Assembly (NCBI RefSeq): GCF_037042905.1
Contig: NC_087251.1
Location: 5,582,001 to 5,646,000 of the forward strand
DNA: 64,000 nt
Direction of reading: 5' to 3'
Origin: Lytechinus pictus
Lineage: Eukaryota
The position numbers were made by a program, and so were the translations under genes. The first letter of the stretch is position 1, and every line of letters starts with the position of its first letter. Positions 18 to 41,694 of this stretch are shown one piece after another. Under the pieces are notes generated by a model. That model did no database searches. It was given only the letters and a program-made list of their open reading frames with translations, and was not told where the DNA came from.

Positions 18-241
18 AAACTCGATGAGTTCATATAGCAGCATTCGAATGAAGACTTCTACGGGCTTCCTGTGGTCACGGATAGGTCTCACAGAAACAT
101 CGCAATATTGATCTTTCAGTTTCCATACGAGTGCCTTGGTAGAATTGTCTCTCATATGATCTGGGTTGTAACCAAAGGTTGTAACATGATTATGGACATG
201 GCATTGACGTTTAAATTCGATTGTAATCTTTTGCACAGTTA
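18..241 (-). CDS. nAChR paralog B exon 2 (...STKALVWKLKDQYCDVSVRPIRDHRKPVEVFIRMLLYELIEF); gene continues beyond the left edge
   Basis: Open frame clearly homologous to gene A exon 2, with a GTGAGT donor at the same codon. Acceptor is either before 241 (AAG) or before 160 (CAG); both are phase 1. Confidence 0.85.
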
Positions 242-981
242 CTTGATAAAATAACAAATCAAACTAAATCAAATTGAAACTATTTTACCATGGTGTGGGG
301 GTGTGGGTGCGTGTGTATGTTAGGGTTTGTGGGAGAGAGTGTATGTGTTTATGTACTTATTTAAATATTTAATTGGTCAATTGGTCTACAAGACGAAGGG
401 GGATATATTAGGGACGATGGAAAAGGTGTCCTTGCATGGAGGGGGAAAATCATGCCAACTTTGAGGGGTTTTATGTTTTGTTTGTTTGTACAAAGGTACA
501 GTGGTATACAATTTGATATGTTATATCCATTGATGATTTTATGATTTATTGTATATTCAAATTCAAATTTATTTATTTCACTTCCATCAAACAAAAACAA
601 ATTGTATACCATATATAAACATAAATATTTGTATCCGTTGCAAAAAAAAATATATATATAATTTGCTGTCTTCAAGAAAAAGAAAAAAATATTTTAAAAA
701 TATTTATTTTTTGAGGATATTGGCTCGCAGACCAATGGAGATATGAATATTTGCTTAATAATTCTCCTAATGCATGTGTTTATGTATTGAAAGAAAGAAA
801 AAAAAATTGGAATCTCATCATTTCATCGTGAAATCAGGAGAGGTATGTATCGCCTAGCTTATCCATCAGGTCAGAATATTTTTATGTAACTCACTTAATA
901 GCTTTTTGGCAAAAAGAAGCTGCTGAAAACTGCTTATCTAATAAAAGAGAGCCAATGGAGTAAATTAGAAAGTCAAAAGCG

Positions 982-1020
982 GCCTAAGCTTTCGATCCTA
1001 GCAGAATCTTCGTCGGAGGC
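982..1020 (-). ncRNA. Minimal type I hammerhead ribozyme motif (U4C variant) in a Penelope-like pLTR fragment
   Basis: Minus strand reads GCCT-CCGACGAA-GATTCT-GCT-AGGATC-GAA-AGCT-T-AGGC; stems I and II pair, stem III is palindromic. Confidence 0.65.
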
Positions 1021-1472
1021 AAAATGAAAAAAAATGGTTAATAGCTTTTTATCAACATATTTTAAAGGCCTTTTCCAGTAGTTGGAAATAGTTCGCAGTC
1101 AATAACAGGTTTGCTAAAATGGGCGATAACCAAAACGCGACTTATGCCAGAAGAGAAAAATGACGACAAAAAGGCCAATATAAAGCTGGAAACATTAGTA
1201 TTCATCGAGGAGAGAGGTATAATTGATATCCAATTCTCAACGCAGCTCAACGTGTCAAAGAGTTTGTCACCATGGATAATGATAATGTATTCTCGATTGA
1301 ATTGACTTATCAAAGAAATCACGACACCGAAATATTTTTAATGAATTTCAAGGATAAGTGAAATTTATGAATAAGTAAAAATAAAATATAAAAAGAGATA
1401 ACCAACTAAATTTGGCATTTTATGTTTTTATTTCTTTTGATTTGTTGTATTGGAAATAATACGTAAGCCTAT

Positions 1473-1507
<35 letters not shown>

Positions 1508-2362
1508 CCGTTTTTGCAGTAGATGAATATGACTAAAGCTAGGTGACATCAATGGCAATATCGAAAATTTCACAATGTCTAGACTTTAACGTTGATTTAA
1601 GTTAACAGAAAAAATCAATTTAACATTTTAAGATATGATTTGTGAGCACATTTTATTAATTATGATTTTATATAATCATGAGGCTCATAACACCATAAAG
1701 GGGCTAATATATACTCGAATAAAAAAAATGTTTTATAAAAGTTGGGTTTGCCATTAATCATGTTAATGAGGTAAACACATAATACAAAATTATGTATTGG
1801 TGTCACAGTCGCTTTCAGAGTCATATCTATTGTAAGAAAGGTTTTAGTTACATACACCAAGTTAGAAGCATGTTGTGTTTTTAACCTTGCAAGGGTGTTG
1901 GCTGGGCGTGCACCCTCCCACGGAGCAGATGAGTTCCGTCACTTGCAATACTTTAGTTCCACCTCTCCGGGATGTGCACCCCTCATGCTCAAACCAGCCT
2001 ACGCCCTTGCCTTGCACGGTTTTTTTTTTTTTTTTTTTATTTGATCATTAAGTTGGGATGGGTGACAAAACAGTCCACCTTGGAAGTATAAAATAGTCCC
2101 CTCCCTTTTTGTCATGAAAATAAATCATCGCCACTGTTTGAATCTGACATTATTATGTAATTCAGAATAGGCCTACTCACTGTCTTGCGTATTTTTTTTT
2201 CAGAATAGTGTCACTTTTCTCTGCATGGTCTTTGTTCACCATTCATAATTCATAGTTAGTCGTTAAAACATATCTGCAGTGAGTTATTAGCTTGAATTTT
2301 CAATTGTACATTATTTGTGAACTTGTCTATTGAAGACCAAATTGATACATTATATATTCTAA

Positions 2363-3596
2363 AGCCCCAGTCACATATAGATCCCGGACCACCCCGGACC
2401 ATCCCGGATCTGATCCGGGGAGAGATCCGTGTTGGCGCCTTGGGCATCCTTGGAGGTCCGGGGTGGTCCGTGTTGGTCCTTGAACGTCCGGAAGGCCAAC
2501 ACGGCAGTTTTTGACTGTCAAAAACATCCGGCGTCATCCGTGGACTGCCGGGTTGGCAAAGCCATCCGGGATGGTCCGTGTAGGTCCGTGTGGCTGCCGT
2601 GTTGGTCCGTGTAGCTGCCGTGTAGGTCCGTGTGGCTGCCGTGTAGGTCCGTGTGGCTGCCTGGAGTATCCTTGGCAGTCCGTGTTCTTTTTTCCCATAA
2701 AATCTTTACAACGCTATTTACGTTATGAACTTTTCAGGAGTTGTTAAACAGTTGACACAAACATGCTTAATTTATTTATGATTAAATGGATGATTTAACG
2801 ATTCAGGATATTTTCTTACGCTTTGGAGATTGGCCCCAACCTAATATTTGTAAACTTAGTGCATGTATCAATATTTTTTTTTCTTTCATATTTACCCCAA
2901 CTTTGTCTGTTATTACCATTTCACATTTCCTTTTCTTAAAATAAATGTTATGTACCTGTTACATCAAAATTGTACATTAAGTTTTATACCACTGCCCTGC
3001 ATCGACAGTTATGCGTCATGACCTGGGCCTATCTTAATTTGTATTATGTTTTCTATTGACTTTGTAAATTTCTTTCCTTTACTGTGATTTCAATAAAGTG
3101 ATATCAAATCAAATCGAAATAAAATTTGTCGTTCAATATTTAAAGTACTTAACAACTACTGTTAAAACAGTAAACTGCGTTGTATAAAAAACAGCGTTTT
3201 TACTGGTTGAGGAAGTTTTAAGTTTTGATATCTTTTTTAAAAACAACATAATATAATGTTGCGACAAGGATGAGAAAAAATAAATAAATATCAGCTCATT
3301 ATTATGAGCAGATTTTCATTTGCCATGCTGGTCAATATAGCTGCCGTGTTGGTCCTTGAGCTGACGTGTTGGTCCTTGTAGCTGACGTGTTGGTCCGTGT
3401 TGGTGACGTGTAGGTCCGTGTTGACGACGTGCTCTGCCGGCATGATCCGTGTAGATCCGTGTGAAGATGCCGTGTAGATGCCGTGTTTACAGTCATCAAC
3501 GCTTAATCCGGGGCAAAACGATCCCGGACCTCCCCGGATCATGCCGGCGTTGCCGTGTTGATCCGTGAGGATCCGTGTCTTTATGTGACTGGGGCT
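2363..3596. mobile_element. Non-autonomous PIF/Harbinger-type DNA transposon
   Basis: TIR AGCCCCAGTCACATA...TATGTGACTGGGGCT, TAA on both sides, GC-rich ~21-bp subterminal repeats (GTAGGTCCGTGTGGCTGCCGT). Confidence 0.8.
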
Positions 3597-4344
3597 TAAG
3601 AAGACGGTGTGTGGAGCCGTGTTATGTGCAAACTCTGGGATATGTACAAACAACGGTGTACAGTATGTGCAAAATTTCGGCGGGATTTGTGCAAACAACG
3701 GAATTTGTGCAAACGCCACGCCGGGAAATGTGCAAATCTGTCAAAATTTATCAACAGCATCTGTGCAAACGTGACGACGGGATATGTGCAAATGAACAAT
3801 TTTTCACGGGAAATGGGCAAACCTCCGGGATATGTGCAAATCACTGTTTGTACCAATATTAAGGCTATTTCTCATGAAATGTTTCATAACATTACTGTTA
3901 AAATGAGAAACATGCCTTCAAGGGAGAAGCAACAGTGCCATCGGCAATGAAACGCTTTTCAGAGAGGCGGGGGGGGGGGGGGCACCGTGAGACTAAAATT
4001 TAAGGGACACTCAATTTTGAACACTGCCTGAGGCACTTTCAAGGCAAATGGGGCACAAGAGTATTTTTTTTGTCATTCGGGCGAGAGATGTTATACCCAC
4101 AATGTTATAACACGTATAACACATTACACACAAAAGATCGCCGGCAAATGTAATAACTCTCTTACCCACAAATGTACTCCAGACACACCATTGTGTGGAC
4201 TGGATACATTTATATATATATATATATATATATAAATGTATAAATATATATATATATAACTATATATATATATATAGACATATACAAATTAAATTGAAAT
4301 GTATCAAGTTCAGGGAAAGTGCTCGATGTTTCAACTGAAGCAGA

Positions 4345-4640
4345 GCGTGGGCAATAATGAAAAAATCCAACTTGGCTATGCGGGGAAGTGGATTCTGCAA
4401 CCTATGCTTAGACGAAAAACTCATTATCGCAACTCACAAGAAAAACTCACTCAACCGAAGGTCCGAACTAATCAGTACATGCCGTCACAAAAGAAGAAAC
4501 AAAGAACCGCCGGACCATGATATCCATTGCCCCAACCGAGGGCCACCACAAAATCCAACTAGCTTCAGTGTCCTGATGGCTGATGAGCCGAGGCGCGAAA
4601 CCATTGGTAGATCAGAGGTGAGGACAATTAATATATAGAC
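4345..4640 (+). mobile_element. Penelope-like retroelement 3' fragment (GIY-YIG C-terminus plus pLTR with hammerhead-like motif)
   Basis: WAIMKK..CNLCLDEKLII..LNRRSELISTCRH motif; CTGATGA..GAAA core at 4580-4600; (TA)n on both sides. Confidence 0.75.
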
Positions 4641-4653
4641 ATATATATATATA

Positions 4654-5566
4654 CAGCGCGTCCCCCAAAAAATATCCCTCTGATACGAGGCTGAATTACT
4701 TCCAAACTTGAAAATTATTCTCAATTAAATGTGTGGATATAGGAAGCTCATCTCATGTTGTAACTTCTATAAAAATTTATTTGGTCTCGCTTCAGTGGTT
4801 TTGAATACACAGTCTATTATGTAACAATGGCGCTTTTCAGCCTATTCCAAGTTTACGTGCATGCAGCACTGCTGTATGTTCTGCACTTTCGAGCATTATC
4901 AACTCCCACTGATCATTCTGACCAGGGAATTCCCTGATCTGACCAGGGAAATCTCCATGATCTAACCAGGCTCATCAAATCACAACATTGAGCATGTTCA
5001 AAAGGGGAAAAAAAAACATTTGACAGTTCATTTCATGTTTGATAATGAGAGATGCACAATGATGGAGACAACAGGTCATGTCTGTTTCATGCTTACTTCA
5101 AAGAATATTGCATTTCTGTTTTCATTACATTTTTTTTACTTAATAAGCTACTGAGGTCAAGTTAATTCAATGTACCCTTTTAAATGAACAAAAAATCAAT
5201 TTGTTTCACGGGTAAAGTTCCCTTACGCAAAATGTAACTTGTAGATTCCCCTTCATTGTTCACCTTATTTTACTCATCCATCATTCACAATTTCTTTCAA
5301 GTTGGTGCACTGATTCCCCTTAATCATGTTAATCATCAAACAAACTTCATTTTTTAAGTTTCTTGTCCTAAACATGCCCAAGATAATGATTTGAAGAGTC
5401 TCGATAGGATTAGGGAAGTGTCCATGCTCAGATCCTGGATGTAAAACTGGGTGTTCACATGCCATAGACAATGAAGAAATACATCAATGCTGCAAACTTG
5501 GAATGGGCTAAAATGCATCACTGTTACGTAACAAAGTGTGTATTCAAAACCACTGAAGCGAGACCG
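4654..5566. mobile_element. Tc1/mariner-type MITE with truncated right arm
   Basis: TA-CAG start; GGTCTCGCTTCAGTGGTTTTGAATACAC (~4783) is inverted at ~5538-5566. Confidence 0.55.
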
Positions 5567-5647
5567 AAAGCTTGTGAATAAACTTGAACTGAACCCCGGC
5601 TACGTTTCATTGCTTTATTCTCGCTGTATCTACATATAGCATCCTCT

Positions 5648-5688
<41 letters not shown>

Positions 5689-6327
5689 TATCACTTTATT
5701 TCAATATTCATAAAGGATCAGATGACATATAAAATCAAATAATTACATAGTAGTTTACAAACACAATGAACAAAGGAAATAAAAGTAGCCCATGCGGGTC
5801 CTGGCTTATTACTGCCGAGGCAGGACATACAGTATAGAACATAATACAAGATAGAAAAGAGAACAGAACAATATATTATATATAGCAAAGATCTTGGTTG
5901 CGATTAATCTCGTTATAAATTATTACATTCTGTAGTCAAAATAAATAAATCATGTAAACATATGAACAAGCGAGTTACTCTATATAGTTATTAATTTTAT
6001 CATCGTCGTCATTAATATTGTTTATTTGTATAACTGCTTTTATTGATATTTTACTATATTATTATTATTGTTAATATTATTGTTTTATTTTCATTTTGTT
6101 ATTATCATATTGTTGTCATTATTATTATATCTATTATGAATATTATCATCATTGTCAGAAGTATAATTATTAATAACAATACTTTAATACTATTATTATT
6201 GTCATCAACATTCAACGTGATACTCATTATTTATTTTTTAACGTAATCAGTATTACCACTAATGTAGAGAAGTTGCCAGCTTTCATCATGGTCCAAATTT
6301 CTATTAACTTAATTGCTGTTATATGAA

Positions 6328-6370
<43 letters not shown>

Positions 6371-6415
6371 ATGAGATGAGGCCAACTCAAAAGATGACGC
6401 AGGACACCATTCTTA

Positions 6416-6453
6416 GCTTTAGCTTTCGTCTTTATTAAGACTTCGTCAGAAGC
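6416..6453 (-). ncRNA. Minimal type I hammerhead ribozyme (inverted copy, sense to host nAChR pre-mRNA)
   Basis: Exact reverse complement of 6571-6608. Confidence 0.8.
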
Positions 6454-6570
6454 GTCTGAAAAATATAAGGAGATACAACATCCAAGTTTGTCTTGCACAT
6501 AAATGATTGATGATAATTCATTGATGTGCAAGACAAACTTGGATGTTGTATCTCCTTATATTTTTCAGAC

Positions 6571-6608
6571 GCTTCTGACGAAGTCTTAATAAAGACGAAA
6601 GCTAAAGC
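6571..6608 (+). ncRNA. Minimal type I hammerhead ribozyme
   Basis: GCTT-CTGACGAA-GTCTT-AATA-AAGAC-GAA-AGCT-A-AAGC; intact core, predicted cleavage after 6604. Confidence 0.8.
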
Positions 6609-6706
6609 TAAGAATGGTGTCCTGCGTCATCTTTTGAGTTGGCCTCATCTCATGTTTCATACTCACATTTCAAGAGCGTTTGGTACAAGTAAACTTGTCA
6701 TCACAT

Positions 6707-6744
<38 letters not shown>

Positions 6745-6745
<1 letters not shown>

Positions 6746-8620
6746 TGGTCTTTACCCAAGACCCGGTTATTTCAAAACTTTAAAAAAATCTTAAAAACTA
6801 AGACCCACTATCGTTTGGAATAACATGGATATAGAGTGTAGTCTTGTAATACTCCAGACCCGGTCATTTAACAATTTGAAGATCCTTCTAAACTAAGATC
6901 CTGTACTAAAGCATATGTAAAGAGCATATTAAAAAAAAAGTAAAAACTGCAACACCTCACCGTCTACCAAATTAAGACCCCGTAAAAATGAATATAGAAT
7001 GTAGTCTTTACCCCAGACCCTGTTATATCAACAATAGCAAAAAATCAAATTTAAGACCCCACCGTCTCATTCCTGTGGAATAAGATGAGTATAAAGTGTA
7101 GTCTTTTACTCCAGACCGGGTGATTAAACAAATTCAAAATTATTAAAGGGGAATCCAGCCTTTGCCATAAAATGTTGTGTTGGGAAGGAGAAAAATAAAT
7201 TAAAAAGAATGGCGAAAGTTTGAAAGAAATCGGACAAGGAATAGGAAAGTTATAGCTGCTTTTAAATTGAGATCACTAATAGTATGTAGATTTCAAATTG
7301 GCAACTGGGTAAGTAAATTATGACAAGGGGCAAGGACAACTTTCCCATAGGCCATGTACTTTATTATCAGGGATTTGTGGTTTTCTCCTAAGTACCCATT
7401 CCCCTGGGGCAGTAATCTAAATATAATCCAGGTAGTATATTGTTTTAAGTCCTTATAAAAGAAAAATATAATTTGAAATAAAACTTTTTGGGAAAATGAC
7501 ATTTTAGCCACAATATGTATTGGAGTACATGGAAGAGTAGTCCTTGCCTTACATCACTATGACATCCCATATGCGGCCAATTTGAAGTCTCCATGGGTAT
7601 AGTGATTACCAATATTTACAACTTTTAAAAAATCATAACTTTCTTGTTGTTTGTCCAATATTGTTCAAACTTTCACCTATCAACTTGTCTGATTTTTCTT
7701 TTTCTTATAAAAACAAGTTTTTATTTGGGTTGGATTCCCCTTTAAAGCCCCGCCATCTTCCACTACTAAGACTCTGTAATAAAGAACGTGTATATAACGT
7801 ATTCTCAATTCTCCAGACCCGTTTATTTGAACAAATCTTCAAGACCCCACAGTCTCATTTCTGTGAAAAAAAATGGATATACAGTGCAGTCTTTACTCCA
7901 GACCGGTGAGTAAAAAACCTTCAAAATTAAGACCCCAAACTAAGACTCTGTTATAAAGCGGGGGGTGGTTCTTATTTTTATTTGGCAACCAGTCAATTTG
8001 ACTATTTTCGCCATCATAAGGGTGCATAACGTAGTCTTTACTCCAGACCCGTTTAAAAAAAGTACGTTATAATCTTTAAAAATAAGACCCTGTAATAAAG
8101 CATGGATATAAGAGCATAGTCTTTACCCCATACGCTGTTATATAAAAAAATTAGGAGATCTTCAATTTGAAGACCCCACCGTCTCATCCCTGTGAAAAAA
8201 ATATAGAGTGTAGTCTTTACTCCAAACCTGGTGATTAAAAAAAACTTCCATACTAAGACCCCATCATCTTCCGAACTAAAAGTTTATAATAAAGCACGGG
8301 TGTATAGCATAGCCTTTACTCCATACCCATTTATTAAAAAAATACACTGTACACTGTATACCCACTGTATAATTACACTGTATACCCATGTGCTACATTG
8401 CAGGGTCTTAGAATTGAAGATGACGGGATTGAAGTTTCGAATATTCTTGATTTTTTTTTCAAATGACTGGGTCTGGTGAAAAGAATACACTCTATATCCA
8501 TATGCTTGATTACATGGCAATGGTTTAGAAGATGGTGAGGTCTAAGTTTTAAAGTTTATTTCCCTTTCTTAACCACCGGGTCTTGTGTAAAGACTACGCT
8601 TTAATCTAGCTCAGGTATAG
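6745..8620. repeat. Degenerate tandem array (GTAGTCTTTACTCCAGACCC / AAGACCCC units) with an inverted distal arm; foldback-like
   Basis: Motifs recur from 6745 to 8330; reverse-complement units at ~8400-8620. Confidence 0.6.
7147..7741. mobile_element. TTAA-target MITE (Kolobok/piggyBac-type)
   Basis: TTAA|AGGGGAATCC...GGATTCCCCT|TTAA. Confidence 0.85.
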
Positions 8621-8889
8621 CGTTAATCCTGTTGCTTGGAAGAGTATATGGCCAAGAGTATAAAAAAAGTAGACTAATAACATTAATATTGTATGGTACG
8701 GTCGCATTGGGTCTGGAAAAGGAGACTGCCAGCATTCGTTTCGTATGGATTTGTCACAAATTAAAGGGTCTAAAAAGTAGACTAGCACCCTTTGTCTCAT
8801 ACGGAATGATCCACTAGGTCTGAGAAAATAGATAAACATTCATTCATACCTAATAGACACATTTTAAGGACAATGCCATATATTAAACA

Positions 8890-10380
8890 GATATGTATCT
8901 CACTGATGAAATAGTGCGAGCGCGAAGTGCGAGCTTAAATTTTGTTATATTCCGACCTAAAAATGGACATTATAATCAACTTTTTGTAACCATGATACGT
9001 ATCTGTCTCGCTAAACAATGCGAGCGCAAAGCGCGAGCTGAAATTTTTGTATATATTGACCCCAAACAGGGAGATTTTAAGGACTATATTTAAGGAATTC
9101 ATTACATTTCTCACCACAGTCGGTTACACTTCGTAATTCCGAAGGTTCGTAATTCCGAAGGTTCTTTATTCCGAAGGTTCGTAATTCCGAAACACGTAAA
9201 TTGCCTATACCTCGATGTTCGTTAATCCGAAAACGTAAAAGGGTTCGTTAATCCGAACATTTGTGGCGTTATTCCGAAGGTTCGTTATTCCGAAGGTTCG
9301 ATAATCCGAAAACGAAATAAGGTTCGATGTTCCGAAGGTTCGTTAATCCGAAAACGAAATAAGGTTCGTTGTTCCGAAGGTTCGTTAATCCGAAAACGAA
9401 ATAAGGTTCGTTGTTCCGAAGGTTCGTTAGTCCGAAAACGAAATAAGGTTCGTTAATCATTTCGTTTTCGGACTAACGAACCTTAGGAATTACGAACCTC
9501 ATTTCGTTTTCGGATTAACGAACCTTCGGAATTACGAACCTCACTTCGTTTTCGGACTAACGAACCTTCGAAATTACGAACCTTCGGAAATACGAACCTT
9601 CGGAATAACGAACCTTCGGAATATCCGAACCTTCGGAATAACGAAGCTTCGGAATTACGAATGTATGCGAGAATTGCACATGAATCACTCGTAATCATTG
9701 TAATCATGATATTAACATACGCATTTTAATAATCAAATATTGCGAGCGCGAAGCGCAAGCTGAAACTTTAGGAAATTCAGACCTGAAAAGGGGCATTCTT
9801 AAGCTTGTTTGTAGTAATTCACTAAGACCGAGCGCGTAGCGCGAGCTAAAAATTTTTGATATTGAGATCAGAAAAAGGGACATTTTAAGGACTGATTCTA
9901 GGAACTCATGGAGAGCAGACATATCTCACCAATCCACTAATGCGAACATAAGCACGGACAAGAAATGTTTTGTATTAAGACCTAACATGTGGCAATCACT
10001 TTAAGTAGTCATGAAAAAGAAGCATAGATTCTATTATTGTACATAAAATAATAATAACTCGAAGTGCGAGGAAGTATATTGAAAACGGGAGGTTTTAGTA
10101 CAACAGGATTATATATCTCGTTAAAGTTTAACAGACAATGCGAGCACCAGGAACAATGAAGACATAGGCCCTAATCAAATTATGTTTCATAAAGTTATGA
10201 AAAAAATCTTTCTTATGTAATAGAACATAATTGTAATATAACTTTATAATGAACAATAATTTATTTTTCCCATTACGTTTCTCTTCCTCTCTCCCTCTTT
10301 TTCTCCTTTTCCACGTTTTTTTTTTGGTCAGCCGATGGGGGGACGTGCCCCATGCCCCCCCCCCCCCCCCCGTAGTTACA
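8890..10380. mobile_element. Remnant of hAT-like element with CGAGCGCGAAGCGCGAGC repeats
   Basis: Same motif as 45.6-47.4 kb in the opposite orientation; ends in a C-run followed by GTAGTTAC. Confidence 0.5.
9121..9669. mobile_element. Foldback element built from TCCGAAGGTTCG tandem repeats
   Basis: Left arm of TTCCGAAGGTTCG units, centre ~9458, right arm of reverse-complement units. Confidence 0.75.
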
Positions 10381-10549
10381 ACTTCTGATGAAATCTGGAA
10401 ATGATATCAACAGATCAAGTTCAATGTGTGGATCAGTGGAAATCATGCTTGCCTCCCCCACCCCCTTAATTAATTGCCCCATGCAGTGTTCAAAACAGTA
10501 CTGAATGTCCATGGTGCCACCCTGGCCTCTTTGAAAGACGTTTCATTGC

Positions 10550-10950
10550 CGGTGGTCAGAGGTAAAAATGGCAGAGGTAATAATGGCAGAGATAAAAATG
10601 GCAGAGGTAAAAATGGTAGAGGTAAAAATGGCAGAGGTAAAAATGGCAGAAGTAAAAATGGCAGAGGTAAAAATGGCAGGGGTAAAAATGGCAGAGGTAA
10701 AAATGGCAGAGGTAAAAATGGCAGATGTAAAAATGGCAGAGGTAATAATGGCAGAGGTAAAAATGGCAGAGGTAAAAATGGCAGAGGTAAAAATGGCAGA
10801 AGTAAAAATGGCAGAGGTAAAAATGGCAGGGGTAAAAATGGCAAAGGTAAAAATGGCAGAGGTAAAAATGGCAGATGTAAAAATGGCAGAGGTAATAATG
10901 GCAGAGGTAAAATGGCAGGGGTTATAATGGGAGAGGTAAAAATTACAGCT
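10550..10950 (+). repeat. 15-bp minisatellite (GGCAGAGGTAAAAAT)n
   Basis: ~25 near-perfect units. Confidence 0.95.
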
Positions 10951-11027
10951 CTTGGTAAAATATGGCCAGTCTTAAACCCCCATGCAATGAATTGTCAAAA
11001 AGCCCCCGCATGTACTACATACATTAA

Positions 11028-11630
11028 AGGTCAAGTCCACCCCAGAAAAATGTTGATTTGAATAAATAGAGAAAAATCAAACTAGCATAATGCTGAAAAT
11101 TTCATCAAAATCGGATGTAAAATAAGAAAGTTATGACATTTGAAAGTTTCGCTTATTTTTCACAAAACAGTGATATGCACAACTCAGTGACATGCAAATG
11201 AGACATACGATGATGTCCCTCACTCACTTTTTCTTTTGTTTTTTATTGTTTGAATTATACAATATTTCATTTTTTACAGATTTGACAAAAAGAACCAACT
11301 TGACTGAAGCATATAATATTAATCAATGGTAATTCCACATGTTCAGGGAGGAATTAATCGCTGTTTCACTTGACAATGAGGAAAAAATTAGAATATCTAA
11401 TATTTCATGTAATAAAATACAAAAGAAATAGTGAGTGGATGATATCGTCAGTCTCCTCATTTGCATATCAACCAGGATGTGAATATAACTGTTTTGTGAA
11501 ATTAAGCGAAACTTTAAAATGTCATAACTTTCTTGCTTTACATCCGATTTTGATGAAATTTTCAATGTTATGCTTGTTGGAATTTTCTTTTTTTATTCAA
11601 ATCAACTTTTTGTTGGGTTGGACTTGTCCT
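11028..11630. mobile_element. TTAA-target MITE (Kolobok-type)
   Basis: TTAA|AGGTCAAGTCCACCC...GGGTTGGACTTGTCCT|TTAA; long imperfect arms. Confidence 0.85.
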
Positions 11631-12929
11631 TTAAATAAGAAATGCATGTCACGGTTAGGCATTTCATCATCATTATGTCTTCATCGGCCTAACTATTTAC
11701 GAATTCGTTGGAGGTGTACCGTGAACGCTTTTTAAAAAGAAATCAAACGACAGACATTTTTTCATTCAATTTATCAGGAGCAAAATGAAACTGCACTATT
11801 CTCATTCATCATTTTATAACATTCCTTTTTGCCTGGCTGGTTTTTTATCTCTAAATTTTTGCCAGGTTTACCGATGCAAAAAGGAGGAAGAGTAGACATA
11901 AGAGAGATGGAGAGACAGAGAGGGTTCAGGGGCGGGGAAAAACATAGAGAACATAGCGGGGCAAGCTTAGACGTTGAAATTGTCACGAATGATTGTGGTT
12001 AAATATTATGTTCTTATTTGTAATGTCGTCTGTACTATTCTTTTTAAATATTTGAATGACAATAAGCATGCGTTCCCAGGCTTGGCACTGAATATGTTAC
12101 TGAATATGAAAATCAATAATAATCTTGTTTTGACTGGTAAACCAATTTGGGGTCGATCGAGGGGGACCGTCTTGTTCAGATTCTTTGCATAAAAGAAGAC
12201 CCTGAACCTTTACCACTGCATCCAATATGATATAAACGTCTTGATTGTCATTCCCCCTTGGAAGCGGAAGTGCTGTTGGGTATTTTGTACACTAAGCAGC
12301 ACCCTCTTGGTAATTAGCTTGGTATGCTTAAATGTAGAGATTTGATACAAATCTCTGCTATTTTTCAAACAGAAGAAAAAACATTGTTTATTATCTAATT
12401 GTTATTATTTTTATGGTAATTATTTTTCTGACCTAAAAGAACTTCATTTAGTTAAAATAATTTTTTTGTGTCATTTTCCCCCTTAACCAAATCCCCTTTC
12501 ATTTTGGAGTGCAAACTTTTTTTTCTCGGCTTTTTAACAAACCAGCACCCCATATCTCTTTCATTTTTGCCTCTGCCATCTTTACCTTTGCCATTTTCAA
12601 CTCCGCCATTTTTTACACTGTTCGAAAATTTCCACCTAAAAATCAAAAATTCCTGCAACAGAGTCTGGAGAACACCTGTAATCTTACTGCACTGTGTAAT
12701 CTTACATGCATTTGTGTTAAAAAATTTACTTTGTGCGTGTACCCTTACAAATTTATTGTAATAAAACTGTTTTCCCCTTTTTTTAAACATCTGTTCTGTA
12801 AAATTGTAGAAAAATTGTGGAAAATCCTCCTGTTATTATGATATACAAAATTATTTGTTTTTTTTTCTGTAAGACCTGTTTTTTATTTTTTCTTCTGTAG
12901 AATCTACTGTTTTTTCTAATAATGTACCT

Positions 12930-13470
12930 CGGCCACTTTTATCCCTGCCATTATCATATCTTCCATTTTTACCTCTTGTCAATTATGCCTCTGCTCTTTT
13001 TACCTCTGCCGTTTTTACCTCTGCCATTATTACCTCTGCCATTATTACCTCTGCCATTTTTACCTCTGCCATTTTTATCTCTGCCATTTTTACCTCTGCC
13101 ATAATTACCTCTGCCATTTTTACTTCTGCCATTTTTACCTCTGCCATTTTACCTCTGCCATTATTACCTCTGCCATTTTTACCTCTGCCACTTTTACCTC
13201 TGCCATTTTTACCTCTGCCATTATTACCTCTGCCATTTTTACCTCTGCTATTTTTACCTCTGCCATTTTACCTCTGCCATTATTACCTCTGCCATTTTCA
13301 CCTCTGCCACTTTTACCTCTGCCATTTTTACCTCTGCCATTTTTACCTCTTCCATTTTTACCTCTGCCATTATTACCTCTGCCATTTTTACTTCTGCCAT
13401 TTTTACCTCTGCCATTTTCACCTCTGCCATTTTTACCTCTGCCATTATTACCTCTGCCATTTTTACCTGG
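12930..13470 (-). repeat. 15-bp minisatellite, inverted relative to 10550-10950
   Basis: (ATTTTTACCTCTGCC)n; degenerate units also at 12560-12612. Confidence 0.95.
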
Positions 13471-13757
13471 CACCGTTTGCACATATCCCGGCGTTTGCAC
13501 AAAACACGGCTCCACACGGTGTTTAAAATTGAAAGTTTGACGGAGGAAAAGCTACACATTTTCTAAATATTGAAACAAATTTGACAGGTTGCGTGTGAAA
13601 TATGATGAAGATTGATCTCATACAAATTCAAAATATCCTTAAGAAATATCGATTGTAAAAACAATATATTGAAAGAAAAAAATCAATGATAATTGAATTC
13701 AATTTTTGCCTTGTTCCAGGTCTTATTTGAACAACGACGTAGAAAGAGCATCCTTAC

Positions 13758-21171: not shown

Positions 21172-21430
21172 TCACTTTAGAAAACTGATAAGAGCAAACA
21201 TGACATTTCCTATCATAGCTAAACAAAGAATGGTTCCGCAAAAAGAATCGAAGGCTAAAGCAAGCTGTCTCCAAATAAACTGGTTTACATCTTTACTTTC
21301 CAAGTCGACTGCAGGTCGCCGAAATTCTTCTGTCCTCAATTCTGTGTCTAGAATAGTGGAAGCTGTGTTCCCATTGGTGATGACCTCTTCGTTCCTGGTA
21401 ACTTTATTTTCTTGTAAGATGTACAGCTTC
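21172..21430 (-). CDS. nAChR gene A exon 8 (MA helix, M4, stop)
   Basis: WRQLALAFDSFCGTILCLAMIGNVMFALISFLK*; phase-2 CAG acceptor. Confidence 0.88.
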
Positions 21431-24400
21431 CTGTACACACAGGAGGAAATATAAACTGTTTATTTGATCTTTCAGACGTAAAGATAAAACCTGTACCATG
21501 ACAAAGTCTCCATGATAATAAATGATAATGCAATTCAGATATTTGCTAGTTGTATTTACTGAATGTTTACTTCAGTAAGTTTTAGTTATATCAATCAGAA
21601 TTAGTTTTAAAGTCTATATCAGGGATACTCCTTAATAAAATTTCACAGAGTCTTCATATTCATAATCATATCTAAGCATTCAGCTATAATACTTATAAGT
21701 AGTTTTTTTATTCAGTTATGTTTTCGTGTTGATATAGTATTTAAATTTCAAACGATGTTTGGCAATCCATACCACTGTTGGTTCTAGTGGAGCAATGACA
21801 GCCTATATGATCATCATTAGACCTTAGTGCTGCGTTCGACACTATTGACCATAGTATACTTGCTAAAATATTAGAAACTGATTTTGGGATAACAGACTCT
21901 GCTTTGTCTTGGTTGCAGTCTTACCTTTCCGATAGGCAGCAACAAATATCAATTGGTGACATTACCTCAAAGAAATTTGACGTTAGATGGGGCATTCCCC
22001 AAGGGTCCGGGCTCGGACCTCTCCTTTTTCCCCTCTATTCTAGTAGACTTTTTTCGGTTATCAAAGCACACTCTGAAAAAATATATTGTCACTGCTATGC
22101 AGATGACACTCAATTATACATTTCCTTCAGCCCAGTCAGGGAACAAGAACAGTCCTGTGTTTTGGCTCTTGAACACTGTCTACAGGAACTTCGTAGATGG
22201 ATGTTGAGCAGTAAGTTGAAACTTAATGAAAGCAAAACTGAGTTTCTTTTCATTGGAACACCTAGACAAGTGTCTAAACTAAATATAGATTGCATAACAG
22301 TTGGAAATACTGTAGTCAAGCAGACCATGGTTGCAAGGAACCTTGGTGTCTGGTTTGACTCGCAGCTAAACATGGAAACCCACATATCCAAAACATGCAA
22401 AACTGTCTTCTATCATCTCTACAACTTACGTCATATCCGAAAATACTTAAGCAGCACATGTATTAATACACTGGTCCATGCATTTGTAACAAGCAAATTG
22501 GATTATTGTAATGGATTACTTTTTGGCTTACCAGATTCTCAGATAAACAAATTACAGCGTGTTCAAAATGCATGTGCCAGACTCATTTGTAATTCCCCAA
22601 ATTTTCCCATGTAAGGCCCCTACTCCACGATCTACATTGGCTTCCAGTACGTCAGCGAATCAAATTCAAAATACTGCTCCTAACATATAAGATACTACAT
22701 GACATGGCCCCCACCTATCTCAGTGAACTCCTTAAATTAAAATCACCCACCCAGTCTTACGGGCTTCGTAGTTCCCATGACACAATGCTCCTCAGTCTCC
22801 CACCATGTAAAACAAAGATTACACCAGGTGACCGTGCCTTTATCAGTGCTGCACCCAAACTCTGGAATAGTCTCTCTTCCTCAATAAGAAATGCATCCTC
22901 TGTCAACTTATTTAAAACTAAACTGAAATCCCACCTCTTTCAAGAGAGTTTTTAATAAATAAGTCACTTTTTTGTTATGTATTTTGTAGAAATAATTAAT
23001 CTTTACTTATTTTTCTTCGATTAATTTAGCGAACTTAAATTTACTTCTAAAATATTTACGTATCCTGTTAATAATTGTTTTTCTGCTTATCTGTTATGTA
23101 TTGTAATGCGCAGTTGAGTATATCTAAATAGAAATTGCGCAATGTAAATTTACAATTATTATTATTATTATTCTAATGGTGGTTATTTTCTAGAAATACT
23201 TATTACGGATGGTGGGTTCATTATTTCTTGAACTATATGTCTTGGGACTTCTCGAGCCGATAAACTATTTTAACATGTTTAGACTGCCCTAATTTCTGGC
23301 TCATAAGACATCTGCTTAAGTAATGTATAAGGACATGCCTTTTGGTTAATAAAATGTACACCCGTACCCCACGTATGAACTGATTAACCATCTGGGGCCT
23401 TGTTGCAGGCTTCATCCATCACTAAAATAAAATGCAAATCTCAAATGCGAGCTTCTATTCTTTATCAGCTTTTTCGGGAAATACCAGTGTATAAGCCCAC
23501 CTATTAACACCTAATAATCTTAATCTTAGGTATGCCATGAGAAGATACCAACGGGTCACAGTGATTCAGTTCGCTTTTCGTCTCCAACGCACAGGTGACG
23601 CCACACATTATTATTAAAAAAAAAGAAAATACCGTAGCACTTTGATGCAGTTCACCAAATGATATAAACCTACCTAATGTAGCTTCTAGTTCCAGATCTG
23701 GAGAACCAAGGCAAAAAAAGTTTAATGACCCATCGTGGAGGCTTGGTGTTGGTATCATGGTGGTAGAGACGTAAAACAATGACTGATAAAAACACAGCAC
23801 ATCCACTGAGGATGATCAGCATGAAGAAACAGGTGACTGTATGAGAGAGAGAGAGGATGGGCGAAAGAGGGATTGGCTTGACAGAATATAAGGGGTGAAG
23901 ATGGAGACGAAATAGAAGAAAGAGATACACAGGTGGAAAAGAATGTACGGGAAATGAGTAAAATTCGTTTTCTGTTTGCCTATACAATATTTTAATTGCA
24001 CCATAGAATTTGGAGATTCAGATAATCTAGGATGTCATGTAGATACGTCACAAAGATTTGTTTTACTTATATTTATTTCCATTCGGTCAAAAATTCGATA
24101 TACCGACACAGTGGATAGGCACATATTAGACAAATTGTCTTTACACAATTATAATGAATATAGATAATGGGAAAAGACCTCTCACTACATGCACGGTGTA
24201 TTATAATATTTAGGTACCTAGGATAGATCTTGGTTCTCCAATGGGCGGCATCTTGTCCGCCACTAACTGCTGAAAGAGTGTAAGCGCCAGGAGGTTGGTG
24301 ACGGTGAAGGTCACCTTCTCTCCTGAATCAGGATGCAACCAGAATCCAACCAGCATAAGAGCTGTCAGAAAGACGGCAGGTACCACTACATTGGTAAGAA

Positions 24401-26648
24401 AGAAACCGGACTCCCTTTGGAAAGTTAGTTGGTACTCAATATGGTCATTGGGGTAGGGACAACAAAGGTACTTGATACTTCGATTGGTTGCCGTGAAGTC
24501 GACCAAAGACCAGATACCATTCTTGACATAGCGAGCTTGGGAGGCATCTACGTCATCCTTGGCGAAGAAGCGCATCTGTTGTTAAAGGGGTGACAAAGAA
24601 CAATAAATTATATAATCGGAGAATACGTGTGTTTAACGTTCACTTATAACTGTCCATATATTAAGTTACATAAAGTAACACTTAACAAAAATATGTTGAT
24701 AAGACCAGTAGGTCATTTTGCCTTAACATCATGCAAATCCAAGGAGTGGAACTGTATCCTTTTTTCTATTCTCGAATGGGCGAGCCAACCATATCCTAGA
24801 TACTTTATATATTCAGCTATTGTTGTTATTTTTATTATTATTATTATCATCATCATCATTATTATTTTTATTATCATCATTGTTATTATCATTATTATTA
24901 TTATAATCATTATCATTATTATTTATTATTATCATTATTATTATTATTACTATCATCATCATTATTTTTATTATCATCATTGTTATTATCATCATTATTA
25001 TAATTATTATCATTATTATTAATCATTATCATTATTATTATTATTATTACTTATTTTCACCAAAATGTATCATTTTTACTGTTCTACTCACTACAATTTT
25101 TTTTTTACATTTTCTGATGTTTCCCTTTAAAGCGGCAATGGCTGTGGTGTTTATCGTTTTAGTTGAACTTCGATGATTTGAATATTGTCAGACATATTGA
25201 TAGTGAATATCTTTACTACTAAAAGACAAAGTTTATCGATAAAAAAGCCACAAAATATATTCATAAAAGTCGATAGGCGCCTTGTCAAGGATTGCCCGTT
25301 CCACGCTTCACCCGAGAATGCGATAGTCTCTCCAACTATTTGTTTTATTCGTTCATTCTTATACATATTAGATGATCTAGACCTTCCGTTGAAATCAATC
25401 ATCAGCCTTTTGTCAGAGATATCTTCAATTATTCAGGCTGCAACTGTGATAAACATCTCCATAGACCTTGATCTTCCTCCTATTATAACCAAGAAAGATA
25501 TGAACTAATCTATAATCGTTTGATATTTATGGCCTACCAGTTATCAAAATTGAAAAATCAATAATTAATAGCCATTTATTTTGTGTTCCAGTGAACCGAT
25601 TTCATTGGATGGTTTTCTAACGAAAACAATTTTGCTTACTAAAATGTAGTACGATTTTTGTTAGAGTGTTATTTAATTTTCAAACGATCTTTTCGAAATA
25701 AGAAGAACGGGTATTATTCGTTTTTTTTTTTTTTTCAAATCACCAGTGATTTTTATCACAAGAAGACAAAAAAGTCAAACGTAACGGTTGAATGCTGATT
25801 TTTTTTTCAGGACTCGTACCTTACTTTCATCGAGCGTCCAGGGATAAAATGTTAAGACACACTTCTGGACATCAAATGGATAATATTGTATGTTCATCTT
25901 ACAAGCACTGGTAGTAATTGCTGGAAATAGCCAATCCATTGCCCCCGTGTATTGGACTATAACATAGGTCTCAGCTTCTGGTAGGCTGATGAAATTACGA
26001 TCAATGCTGTATAAAAAAAAAAGTGAAATTGATTCCTGTGATTTATAGTCACACCGCATTACAGCCGTGAAACCCATGGCCCTGGGAAGCGGGAATGCAG
26101 AGTGTATGCAGCACCCCCTGGAAATCTGGTAGGTGTGCTAAAATGAACGACATTTTGTAGGAAAACCCATTTTGTTATATTTATATCAGCGTATACTCCA
26201 CCCTAACTTAATTATTAATACTACTGACGAAAGAAGTTTTTGATACGGAATGGTGTGACAGAATGTTAGACCTTCATGTCGAATATTGCGTGTAAATTGA
26301 CTGGAAAATGAGAATGATACCATTGAGAACAAAAGATGCCAGGGATTCGGTTATTTCGTCCATCTTAAACCCTTTTTCATCTCAAATCATCTACTTTTTT
26401 CCGCGTTGCATCCCCCCTTTCCTATCCTGTATGCACGCGGATCATAGTTCTATACAAAATTAATATAATATTTAAAAGCGTTGTTGAGAAATGAGAAGAA
26501 ATCATTATAACCTGCACAAACGAAAACTAGTTAAATCGATTTTTAAAAAATAACGAATGTGGTATACCTTACTAATTTGCCTATAAATTGTAAACAATCA
26601 ATGGAAAGGCATGTATAAATCAAAGGGCTGCATTGATAATTCTACAGT

Positions 26649-26695
<47 letters not shown>

Positions 26696-29600
26696 GACTT
26701 GCCATACATGTATTTTATTTATTGTTTTGCATAATATATTTGACATTGTCGTATGTATAAATTTCATGTCATTCGATTTACATTATTAATGTAATTATTT
26801 CAAACAAATAATAATTAGGCCGATGATCTTTCAAACGATAACGACATAGAATGATATATTGTTGATGATCATACATAATGTTGATAAGAATTGTGTTTAT
26901 CATGATAGTGATAATAATAATAATAATGATAATAACGATAATAATGAAACATAATAATTATATCAACAACAAAAATGACAATAATAATAAGGGTAATTAT
27001 GATAACAATATTTAAAATCATGACAATGGCAATCATATGGATTATAAGATGATATGATGACAGTATAAAGTGATGACGACGAAAATGATTATTCTGATAA
27101 TAACTACATGTATAATGATAATAATTATAATGATTAGGATAACGATTATGATAACTTAAGGGGGAATTTTATTGTTAATTACCATTATTAACAAGACTTG
27201 ATGGTGGTGGTGGTGATCAGATAATGATCACAATGATGATGATGAGGAGGAGGATGAGGATGGTGATGATGAGGATGATTTATGATGGTGATGATGATGA
27301 TGATGAACATGATGGTGATGATGATGGTGATAATGGTGATGATGGTGATGATGATGGTGATGATAGTGATAATGGTGATGATGATGATAGTGATAATGGT
27401 GATGATGATGATGAGGTGGATGATGAGGATGATGGCGATGATGATGATGCTGATGATTGTGATGATGATGGTGATGATTATGATGATGAGGATGATGGTG
27501 ATGATGATGATGATAATGATGGACAGTGTTTGTGTGTGTAAAAAGAAACGAAATACATACTCTTCATCTAAGACGACATCAGGTCTCCATACTTGATGCA
27601 TTTTAAGTGTCAGATTGTAAATACCACCATTCTCCTCTGGATCCCATTGGAGATACTCATCAACCCATTGCTGTTACCATAGAAACGACAAAATTGAATT
27701 GAATTATCTACCCGTTGTGTACGCAGCAATACATCACTAGAAGAAGAAGATCCACAATATATTTCCTTTCCATGCAAGTATGAAAATTATTTTCCGTTTT
27801 AATGATGTTCAACAGTTGAATAAGCTAAAATCAAAATCAACTCTAAGAAACAAACAAACTTACCAGCCTCATATTGGTACGAATGGTAATAAGTTGCATA
27901 GTTTCGTCCTACAGGGATAGAGGGAAAGAAGTTTGAAACATGATGTGTATGTGAAACAAACAGTATGGCAACGGGTATTTGGTGTAATAGAGGAAACAAA
28001 TAAAAGATTGAGAGCTGGGGACGAAAAAAGGCGTTAACAGTTTCTGAAATGAGGCTTGACTGAGCCAGAGATAATGTGGGAATTTAAGCCTTTTGCCATT
28101 TAAGTACAACACATGTGTTTACATGTTAAAGAGATAATGGATATAATCTTGCTGCCCAATTTTGTAGCTGTTGAATACGAATTCCTGGATTAGTGATGGA
28201 ATATTGTAGAAAGAAGCCCATTGCGTTAATCAAATCGGGATAGAACTTATGAACATGATGAATGAAGAACATTGTAACAGGCAGACTGGTCAATGAACCT
28301 TCTGATTCTATATAGAATGTTCCTTAGCTGTGATACAGATATAAGAGATATGATGCGACATTGACATGTGGGGGTAAAACTGCATATTCATGACGGTGTG
28401 CATGTAACTATTTCAGAAAATATTGTTTTAAACTTTAAAATTCTACAAGTTCTTTACTTGTTGTCGGACTTTGAGGAATATTTTCAGCATGTTGATTAGT
28501 GAATTTTAATCTATTTATTTAAATATGATTATGTGCCCCTTTAATTACGTTTTGGGTATTTTTCAAACTCAAAGAACTCATAGCACCAACAATGTCACCA
28601 TAATGAATACAGTATTTGAGAAATGACAGTGCGACTTCAGACAAAAGAGAAATGTCATTGCAGAATTGTATTTTAGTTTGCTGTCCAGACAATATATTCA
28701 TATTCCACAAGCAAAGATTCAAAATGAAAGTTTGTCCTTGTCTGAAACCCAGTGTCTAAATACTGTGTAAGATGCGCCATGTTGTATGATCTTTACCGAT
28801 ATAAATGGGAGGGTTTAGTTTACCCAACAATTATGTTCATTTTAAACACAATATTACGATACAATTCATACACTGCATTTACTACACCATACTTATGATA
28901 TACATGTATATATGTGGTTATCACCAACAATTTTTTTCCACTTTTTATTCTCAATGCTATCCATCCTCTAATTAATCGTCATTGCGTTGAATAATCAAAG
29001 GCCTTGGCAGATATGCCATTAGCATCATTTTAATCCTTCTTCCACTTTTAATTGACTACGAACAATAATTCATTCTCGCTTGATGGAAGTCCATGGAATT
29101 CGTTTATGATACTCATCAATGGTGATGATGTGAGGCAAGAAAGTTCATCCGGATGCTTGGTAATTTTGGTAGAAATAATTCTTACCGTATTATATTAATT
29201 GTCAGGATTGACATGTGTGTCATAAATAATTTATGCATATTGCAGATTAAAATTAACTTTGAAAAGATTTCACTTCGAGATCTCTTTTTTTTTCAGGCCA
29301 AAACTGTATGTATCTCATGGACACAACATTCAACATTTTTTACCTAAGATATTTGGATTGAAAAATATATAGTTTAGATTCTACATTCGACTGCAAAAAA
29401 ATATTTTATTATTGTGCTTCTTCACTTCATTTATTCCAATAAACTTGATTATTCAGATGCATCGACCTTTCAATACATACATACATACATACATCTCGCC
29501 AACGAAACCGTCACTACACCAAACGATCATGTACGTCATTCCATATAGTTCATTTTTAATTTATTGAATATACACCTTCATATCTGTGGCACACACAGTA

Positions 29601-32600: not shown

Positions 32601-33875
32601 AGAATACCACCCGATAACGGGTTACTGTTAATAACATACCATGGCATCTAAGTGGGCATTAAATTTATTCATCTATACTTTGGATTATTTTTTAAAATTC
32701 AGGAATTGTGTAGGGGGGGTAATCACAGGATATATATACTGTATCTCATTACATATAATGTAACATCAACGCCATTGTGTTGAATATGTCTAATTGGCGC
32801 CTTGCTATACGCTTACTGCCAAATAAAAAAAATGAATTACATCCAAATCCCCTGCGACATTATGCCTCATCACATTAAATTACCTCAATGCTAGTTTATG
32901 AGTGGATTTGTGAAAATTATTAGGACACTAACCCGACCATCTAATATGCTTGAAGTTGTATCTTTTCTTAATCAAGAACACGACTTTATGAAGTGCTCTT
33001 CGTGTGAGCGGGTCCATCATTGGATCTTTCAGAGTCTCTCACGATATCAAATTCAATGAAATATCAGTTAATAACACTGTACTTTAACTTAACCACGTCA
33101 AATGTTTCATGTTTGAGGTTACACGACATTTCTCTGGCGACAATTGCTCCGGTCTTAACTTTTTCTAAGATATATAAGTTTAGGGTTAGGGTTGCAATAG
33201 GGTTTTATATTAGGCTTGGGGTATAGTGTTAAAACCAGGGTTGAAGTTGGTAATTCCGTTAGTGCGTGGAATTAAGAGCGGAGCAAAATGTCATGGAACT
33301 GCGTCTGAGAGTGTCGTTCACACGATGGCCCTTAACTTCGAATTCAAGGTTCCTCGTGTGAACAAGTCTTAAGTTACAACATAAATTTTTGTGCAACAAG
33401 CCCAATATGAACTTACCAGTTTGACGAGTTCATAAAGAAGCATTCTGAAGAATACCTCGACAGGTTTGGTGTGATTTTTGACAGGTCTAACCGACGTATC
33501 CCCATAGTTGGACAAGAGCCTGGAAACAAGTTCTTTCTCTGTCGTTGTCGTGTTTGGTGATGAGCAGTCGGTCCTATCGGATGCCTGGACTACAAAAATC
33601 AATAAAATAATAATCTAAAGAATCTACGACATTGATATCATTGCAGTCACAGCAGAGTCAGTTCAATTCAATTATTTTTTCAAGCATTGTTATCATTAAT
33701 AGTACTAGTAGAAGTAGTAACAGTAGTAGTAGAAAGGAAGAAGAAGTAGCAGTAGCAGCAGTAGTAGTAGTAGTAGTAGTGGTAGTAGTAGCAGTAGTAG
33801 TAGTATAGTAGCAGTAGTAGTAGTAGTAATAATAGTCGTAGTAATAGTAGTAGTAGTAATAATAGTAGTAGTAGC

Positions 33876-33954
<79 letters not shown>

Positions 33955-40943: not shown

Positions 40944-41694
40944 CTTTACAGCTTTCCAGTAGCATCCATTCGCATGTTGACTTTCATGGTATCCATGCAG
41001 CATCACTCGTGATTATCAGTTTCCTTGATGATCTGCCTTAAAAAGGACACTTATGCAAGCACGTCGTATATAAAACCAAAGTGGATTTAAATTATCATTT
41101 TTAATATAATGTTGCTGCAGTTTCATTATACGTGGAATATCTGTAAAAGCAAATTGAAGATTTACTTTTGAACATCAATTAGCCCTAAGGGCCTTGAGTA
41201 AATGTTACACAAGATTTTTTTCGTCGCTGGAAATGCACGTTCTCTGTCCGATTTCATCTCACAAAAACAGAAAAAGCCTGGACGATTAAACTTGGTTCTA
41301 AATTATGACTTCGATATTAACAGCACGAGCGTGATATACCGCCAACAAAGCTCATTACATCTAGCCAAGAAAACGCGTCCAAAAAAGCAATAACAAGCCA
41401 GCTTTTATGCATGCATCACAACTGTTGATAATGGTTTTAATCGCATTATCATGGTGATGAAAATAAGAAATCGGTCGATCTCGTGGAAAGTAGGTCTATC
41501 AGTTGTCGCTTTCTACTTTTTCTCAACGGTTGAACAGACACATTCAACTAATCAAATAATATAAGTGGCCAAGTTATCTGCGCTCGATGAATAATAGATA
41601 ATTGTGTTGGCTTATCCATAGCAAACCCCGAGTGTATCTTGGAATATTCATAAAGTATTTATGTTGCCTTATAATCTACCAATCAAAATAAGTA

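Follow-up and report, generated by a model that had tools for sequence, protein, structure and literature searches.

A palindrome in intron 1 of a sea urchin nicotinic receptor gene as the probable product of a single Penelope-like element insertion carrying a masked hammerhead

A near-perfect palindrome in a 64,000-nt stretch of Lytechinus pictus DNA (hereafter the window) very probably stems from a single recent insertion event for which a Penelope-like element (PLE) supplied the enzymes, with a hammerhead motif carried along as a passenger and masked within the hairpin. This reading rests on the anatomy of the palindrome, its membership in a repeat family, the two 3′ ends of that family, an intron position assigned by homology and a masking predicted by folding; from these we infer the source of the enzymes, the order of events and the inactivity of the ribozyme. 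The features are collected in Table 1.

A scripted search of the 64-kb window found arms at 6371–6500 and 6524–6653 that are complementary at 130/130 bases with 23 nt between them, in exact agreement with the first-pass annotation, which had claimed a perfect 130-bp palindrome with a 23-nt spacer. The runner-up among perfect inverted repeats in the window (spacer <200 nt) has arms of 31 bp. Within the spacer, 5 further pairs (6502–6506 with 6518–6522) follow one A/G mismatch (A6501 against G6523), extending the stem to 136 bp, 135 of them paired, and reducing the loop to the 11 nt at 6507–6517. The whole insertion measures 336 nt, retains no coding sequence, and has outer ends that are alike at 21 of 23 bases. 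The left arm borders on GTA and then (AT)18 at 6332–6367; on the right a unique 53-nt tail (6654–6706) precedes (TA)8(GA)11. An earlier description of the palindrome as flanked by (TA)n is therefore accurate on the left, past the GTA, but not on the right, where the tail comes first. That the arms are very recent was a fair reading within limits, since 1 difference in 136 positions sets a 95% upper bound of 3.4% on their divergence. Hairpin-driven homogenisation could likewise keep the arms alike, so that "recent" is likely rather than exact.

Table 1. Features of the palindrome and its surroundings (window coordinates)
Feature	Positions	Strand	Basis or remark
Host intron 1 (13,597 nt) of nicotinic acetylcholine receptor alpha-9/10-like gene	161..13757	-	homology to predicted protein
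Exon 1 coding part; exon 2	13845-13758; from 160 downward	-	homology
(AT)18 microsatellite, left half of target site	6332..6367	.	sequence
Inverted, tail-less copy of element end, mirror of 6518-6653 with one mismatch at 6501	6371..6506	-	repeat search
Outer end of inverted copy: ...CATCTCATTA then (TA)n, resembling the family's commoner 3′ end			family loose ends at 6649-6653
Minimal type I hammerhead, sense in host pre-mRNA	6416..6453	-	predicted cut between 6420 and 6419; core position (-6449) found directly, other coordinates mirrored from the + copy
11-nt loop, 5′-most family sequence retained	6507..6517	+	family contigs
Direct 5′-truncated PLE terminal repeat (pLTR) copy, to the family's commoner 3′ end	6507..6653	+	depth profile, loose ends
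Pyrimidine-rich tract ending in CAG, 2 bases upstream of helix I	6553..6568	+	sequence
Minimal type I hammerhead	6571..6608	+	descriptor, folding; predicted cut 6604/6605
Helix I; core; extra A	6571-6574/6605-6608; 6575-6581; 6582	+	
Helix II; GAAA; palindromic AGCT; A17	6583-6587/6592-6596; 6597-6600; 6600-6603; 6604	+	
53-nt tail, on direct copy only	6654..6706	+	repeat search; second family 3′ end near 6702-6710, lower depth
(TA)8(GA)11 microsatellite, right half of target site	6707..6745	.	sequence

Four of 24 listed public sequencing runs were aligned to 6490–6712, which comprises the loop, the right arm and the tail; the best run contains 0.29 of 24 sampled words, and the runs possibly represent another individual or a sister species. 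Two DNA runs yielded 85 and 136 fitting contigs, 23 and 33 of them at ≥99% identity. Summed depth, which is not equal to copy number, rises from about 320 at 6506–6513 to 6424 and 4364 at 6618–6625, falls to 946 and 314 at 6650–6657, and tapers to 6712. The contigs reveal a multi-copy family, and the shape of the profile is that of copies with 3′ priming and 5′ truncation. Loose contig ends mark two 3′ termini. The first, at ~6653, where CTCATT gives way to TA-rich DNA, is seen in at least 4 and at least 11 contigs, whose loose ends start CTCATTATAT; the second, near 6702–6710, is seen in at least 4 and at least 2. The left arm of the palindrome stops at an end of the first type and the tail at one of the second. 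Family contigs from two runs match the window from 6507 and diverge upstream, where they end in AAC, unlike the window, and this places the truncation and inversion junction at 6506/6507.

The junction interval itself (6490–6505) had a depth of 0 in 4/4 aligned runs, in contigs and reads alike, and no strand-switch joints were listed in the 225 contigs and 27 RNA reads aligned, so these four runs neither confirm the allele nor show the palindrome elsewhere. A fold-back artefact of library preparation or assembly would fit with that result, as none of the aligned reads from the 4 runs spans the junction, and with the identity of the arms over 130 bp; inverted PLE structures are, moreover, reported to trouble assemblies (PMC8557442). 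Against it, the left arm terminates at a border that is biological for the family, beyond which come a microsatellite and a flank unlike that on the other side, one mismatch lies beside the loop, and host exons stand on both sides in order. With the mirror ending at that border, and neither tail nor flanks included in it, an artefact is unlikely, and we give this explanation very little weight.

The 27 RNA reads came from 12.9 million reads of one cDNA library, of a type ill-suited to small circles. None of the 27 reached 99% identity and 18 fell below 90%, values that assign them to other, partly decayed copies. A-to-G changes occurred at 1 of 13 changed places, which is no excess and, in reads from other copies, is uninformative on the hairpin. 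Pattern scans of viral contigs and of metagenomes (two scans) returned 0 matches to relatives with flanks, and no reverse-transcriptase or endonuclease gene was found at the palindrome locus.

PLE insertions have been described as containing an inverted 5′-truncated copy and a one-sided tail of 30–40 bp, with a bias to (TA)n (Craig et al. 2021, PMC8557442). In the palindrome, an inverted 5′-truncated copy lies head to head beside a direct copy; the tail is present at one end only and accompanies two family 3′ ends, at 53 nt versus the published 30–40 nt; and the target is (TA)n, other copies likewise ending in TA-rich sequence. Because both flanks are (TA)n, a target-site duplication is unreadable. 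The truncated head-to-head pair, the one-sided tail, the (TA)n target and the minimal hammerhead together uphold the link to PLEs drawn in the first-pass annotation; it is the structure of the ends and the type of ribozyme that justify the term "Penelope-like", the three pattern scans having tied no reverse-transcriptase or endonuclease gene to the family. Pen2a_Av of Adineta vaga likewise has an inverted truncated copy abutting a direct copy, head to head, with a palindrome at the junction (PMC3846280, PMC8557442), and in the same two accounts inverted pLTR insertions of PLEs carry a one-sided tail, and their (TA)n target conceals the duplication. The palindrome departs from the insertions described there in its severe truncation, to 336 nt in total with no coding sequence left, and in its 53-nt tail. 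PAc, the Poseidon element of Anolis carolinensis, resembles it in having two 3′ ends that bound the tail, an AT-rich target and a pLTR hammerhead upstream of the tail (PMC11167929). The parent may belong to Neptune, Hydra, Poseidon or another clade, and none of four papers retrieved on Lytechinus, sea urchins, Penelope and transposable elements was, by title or abstract, about the family of the palindrome.

The position at which the left arm stops also bears on whether host enzymes could have made it. A single truncated PLE copy might have inserted first and acquired its mirror arm later, through a template switch during host DNA repair or replication. Fold-back repair yields such palindromes and AT repeats are prone to breaks, and the near-identical arms and short loop are what it would leave. 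Host repair, however, is indifferent to the border at which the left arm stops, namely the commoner 3′ end of the family, with exactly the tail omitted, and an equal asymmetry is known in PLE insertions (PMC8557442, PMC3846280). We consider a mirror arm of host origin improbable.

In the preferred explanation, insertion by PLE enzymes, the first step would be an element endonuclease cutting the (TA)n microsatellite within intron 1 of the receptor. A reverse transcript, initiated near 6706 where the tail has its outer end, would have stopped after ~200 nt, at 6507; the inverted copy would then have started 11 nt back, at 6518, and ended at the other 3′ end of the family, at 6653, which is the inner border of the tail. 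Given such an insertion, the likelier route to the inverted copy would be fold-back self-priming of the new DNA, with its end set at the tail border. Two observations favor it: the inversion begins no more than 11 nt away from the point of truncation, and the arms are nearly identical. The alternative, to which we assign a smaller though substantial share, would be priming on both cut strands at two start sites, followed by joining of the cDNAs. Complementarity at the junction is weak (0–2 nt) and the predicted DNA hairpin has an energy of only −1.5 kcal/mol, which argues against fold-back and for two-ended priming, as does the end of the left arm, at a site that solo copies share. Self-priming has been the published interpretation of head-to-head palindromic junctions, with an antisense RNA template proposed (PMC3846280); a PLE protein studied in vitro was able to extend both strands, and its two reverse-transcription starts bound the tail (PMC11167929).

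Each strand of the palindrome carries a minimal type I hammerhead, with cores starting at +6575 and −6449. The motif runs GCTT, CTGACGA, an extra A, GTCTT-AATA-AAGAC, GAAA, GC, TA and AAGC. As RNA, GCUU and AAGC would form a helix I of 4 bp around the core CUGACGA, a helix II of 5 bp closed by G10.1-C11.1, and GAAA; the helix III side consists of a loop-less, palindromic AGCU, followed by A17. A descriptor of minimal hammerheads matched twice in the window, once in each arm, and 0 times in 150 first-order random 64-kb windows searched on both strands. No Rfam hammerhead family matched the whole window at gathering score, and the 32 matches obtained in 6200–6900 with E ≤ 10 included none. The best Rfam matches by E-value were microRNA-precursor models, which fit any long hairpin and all scored under their gathering thresholds, and these were rejected.

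In the description of Cervera and de la Pena (2014, PMC4209133), minimal hammerheads have a helix I that is short, one base added after position 9 and a helix III that is palindromic. The core pattern CUGANGA...GAAA...UH is represented here by CTGACGA, GAAA and TA within 6575–6604 and in the mirror; A6582 supplies the extra base and G6583-C6596 the G10.1-C11.1 pair; AGCT at 6600–6603 is the palindromic 15.2–16.2 segment, with loop 3, short or absent in this class, being absent; and helix I, at 4 bp, falls in the expected range of 4–5 bp. An intact core, a 4-bp helix I, one extra base between 9 and 10.1, the G10.1-C11.1 pair, a palindromic 15.2–16.2 and the lack of loop 3 are common to this motif and the metazoan PLE hammerheads of that study, in which helix II has 7–8 bp in the Schistosoma families as against 5 bp here. 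The same study reports pairs of such motifs on opposite strands of PLEs, ~100–700 bp apart, and ascribes single motifs to truncated PLEs; its main text does not name the sea urchin family, and its supplementary alignment may include echinoderm examples (PMC4209133). Conservation of the core across the family is seen in the 40 of 52 variant rows listed from public contigs, none of which falls at 6571–6584 or 6597–6609, with variation present in loop II and at 6610–6612. One decayed copy, represented in the RNA reads, has an altered core.

Helix III has no loop, so cleavage needs a second sense copy of the motif, of which a transcript of either strand has only one; on this modeling the hammerhead can work only as a dimer. 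Monomers of minimal hammerheads do not cleave and dimers cleave little (PMC4209133), and a review that cites Lunse et al. agrees with respect to dimers (PMC6765202). By folding, the active dimer has an energy of −12.3 kcal/mol versus −18.4 kcal/mol for the predicted minimum. A register that would make the monomer competent, with a 3-bp helix III, a 4-nt loop and a cut after 6610, was rejected: it folds worse (−4.9 vs −7.6 kcal/mol), and it would place the cut site and helix I on the variable positions 6610–6612. An earlier claim of an intact ribozyme on each strand is thus correct for the motif only, given the loop-less helix III, the dimer requirement and the single sense copy per transcript.

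The same annotation had proposed that the antisense arm masks the ribozyme, and folding bears this out. The hairpin RNA has a predicted energy of −253 kcal/mol, core bases are each predicted to be unpaired with a probability of ≤0.0007, and the motif is almost certainly locked inactive within it. As a passenger of the terminal repeat, the hammerhead would be preceded by its antisense arm in a transcript of either strand; sequestered in the 136-bp hairpin, it would leave the pre-mRNA uncut.

A blocked hammerhead also bears on whether the palindrome could spread whole as a non-autonomous mobile unit resembling a retrozyme or a MITE. Retrozymes are head-to-tail arrays of 150–450-bp units with canonical hammerheads, from which circular RNAs are released (PMC7229834, bioRxiv 2026.07.22.740005). 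The palindrome is short, non-coding and ribozyme-bearing and belongs to a multi-copy family; like the animal non-LTR retrozymes in these reports it is low in GC, has a type I hammerhead and was probably moved by PLE enzymes, and animal retrozymes have been proposed as non-autonomous PLE derivatives (bioRxiv 2026.07.22.740005). Its architecture is nonetheless different. The window has only an inverted pair and no tandem copy, where retrozymes would show head-to-tail hammerhead units, and the hammerhead is minimal, its helix I being 4 bp long and its helix III loop-less, where the canonical type I form has a helix I of ~6 bp and loop-loop contacts. A MITE or foldback transposon would have symmetric TIRs on a recurring unit; here one end bears an extra 53 nt, the contigs are 5′-truncated single arms, and no strand-switch joint occurs in the 225 contigs or 27 reads. 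With the hammerhead blocked, unit-length RNA cannot be released. The suggestion of a retrozyme-like unit in the first-pass annotation does not survive these observations, and we regard any whole-unit spread as highly unlikely.

Just upstream of helix I, the tract at 6553–6568 looks, from its base composition and terminal CAG, like a splice acceptor. In a second subfamily the sequence upstream differs (loose ends before 6566–6570), but CAG is present at the same place, and in the Penelope of Drosophila virilis the end of an intron abuts helix I (PMC4209133). A frame of 46 codons is open at 6571–6708 (+), from the acceptor-like CAG across the hammerhead to the end of the tail, which starts with ATG. 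It could be a remnant of the start of the parent ORF. In other PLEs the first ORF codons lie in the pLTR and tail (PMC11167929, PMC3846280), and the PAc hammerhead overlaps the ORF start, where the palindrome has at most this candidate remnant (PMC11167929). A coding reading of the frame across hammerhead and tail is unsupported, with family indels of 1–4 nt along it.

The first-pass annotation placed the palindrome in a receptor pre-mRNA, and homology identifies the transcript as that of a nicotinic acetylcholine receptor alpha-9/10-like gene. The exon at 160–15 (−) matches an L. pictus neuronal acetylcholine receptor alpha-9-like protein at 100% over 55% of the query. A cluster member from L. 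variegatus (P0002) is longer by 31 residues, the first 30 of which match 13845–13756 at 90%, and the donor and acceptor of the intervening intron are canonical and in phase. On this evidence the palindrome would lie in intron 1, >6 kb from either splice site. The L. pictus receptor proteins P0001 and P0003 (437 aa) begin in exon 2 and have no signal peptide; since the upstream exon matches the start of P0002 at 90%, the shorter gene model probably misses the first exon. A second nicotinic-receptor-like gene lies in tandem upstream at 21172–41003 (−), with the Pfam domains Neur_chan_LBD and Neur_chan_memb on three exons, an exon 2 near 33405–33570 and a candidate signal-peptide exon at 40943–40871; the palindrome is 14.5 kb past its stop. 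Antisense in the last intron of this upstream gene is a LINE-type reverse transcriptase fragment at 21811–22955 (+; Pfam RVT_1, E 3e-21).

Intron 1 contains further repeats. A second minimal hammerhead at 985–1020 (−) has the extra A, the AGCT palindrome and a 4-bp helix I, with one core change. Between (TA)n runs, a fragment at 4339–4632 (+) encodes CNLCLDEK ... LNRRSELISTCRH and is followed by a decayed hammerhead-like motif at ~4575–4615; we take it to resemble the C-terminal end of a PLE endonuclease. It had no Pfam match, the lead to GIY-YIG from Atlas was weak, with a score of 0.80 and 24% of cluster members, and its DNA is not similar to the palindrome. Two facing arrays of a 15-nt minisatellite (10557–10966 and 12967–13468) are 92% identical over 388 nt, a cluster of GGTTCG-type repeats spans 9125–9665, and an imperfect palindrome of 610 nt spans 11024–11634. 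In all, the intron holds 11 non-redundant inverted-repeat pairs, among which the palindrome under study is highest in identity (97.5% over 283 nt) and three are longer.

Hairpin RNA would exist briefly during receptor transcription, and its processing by an siRNA pathway or ADAR is plausible, perhaps as a side effect. The idea is not new in kind. In transgenic D. melanogaster, rearranged Penelope copies have inverted regions to which siRNAs matched (PMC3681739); in a frog, palindromic repeats undergo hyper-editing, which has been recorded in a sea urchin as well (PMC5625713). A stronger proposal is that the host uses the hairpin, siRNAs from it silencing the PLE family or recruited ADAR altering the splicing or level of the receptor mRNA. 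These precedents would agree with it, and the palindrome is the tightest hairpin of intron 1, but it shares that intron with 10 other inverted-repeat pairs, of which three are longer, and it sits >6 kb from either splice site. Nor is there a sign of conservation, the junction appearing in none of the 4 aligned runs, and the aligned RNA reads come from diverged copies (0/27 at ≥99%). Use of the hairpin by the host is accordingly very improbable. A particular form of silencing, in which the 136-bp intronic duplex, driven by the receptor promoter, would be diced to siRNAs that repress in trans, in carriers, a PLE family that remains active, the antisense arm meanwhile sparing the pre-mRNA, is a distinctly improbable scenario.

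The hairpin is real, but there is little unusual about it: known PLE biology accounts well for what is one more PLE end, truncated and inverted. Its value is modest, that of a clean specimen. Its arms end at the two 3′ ends of the family and its inversion lies 11 nt from the truncation point, and for this reason a genome-wide set of such pairs could help to tell fold-back from two-ended priming, a point on which the PLE papers cited here leave the transposition mechanism open. If siRNAs against its own family were shown to come from the hairpin, a laboratory sea urchin would have a polymorphic transposon silencer driven by a host promoter.
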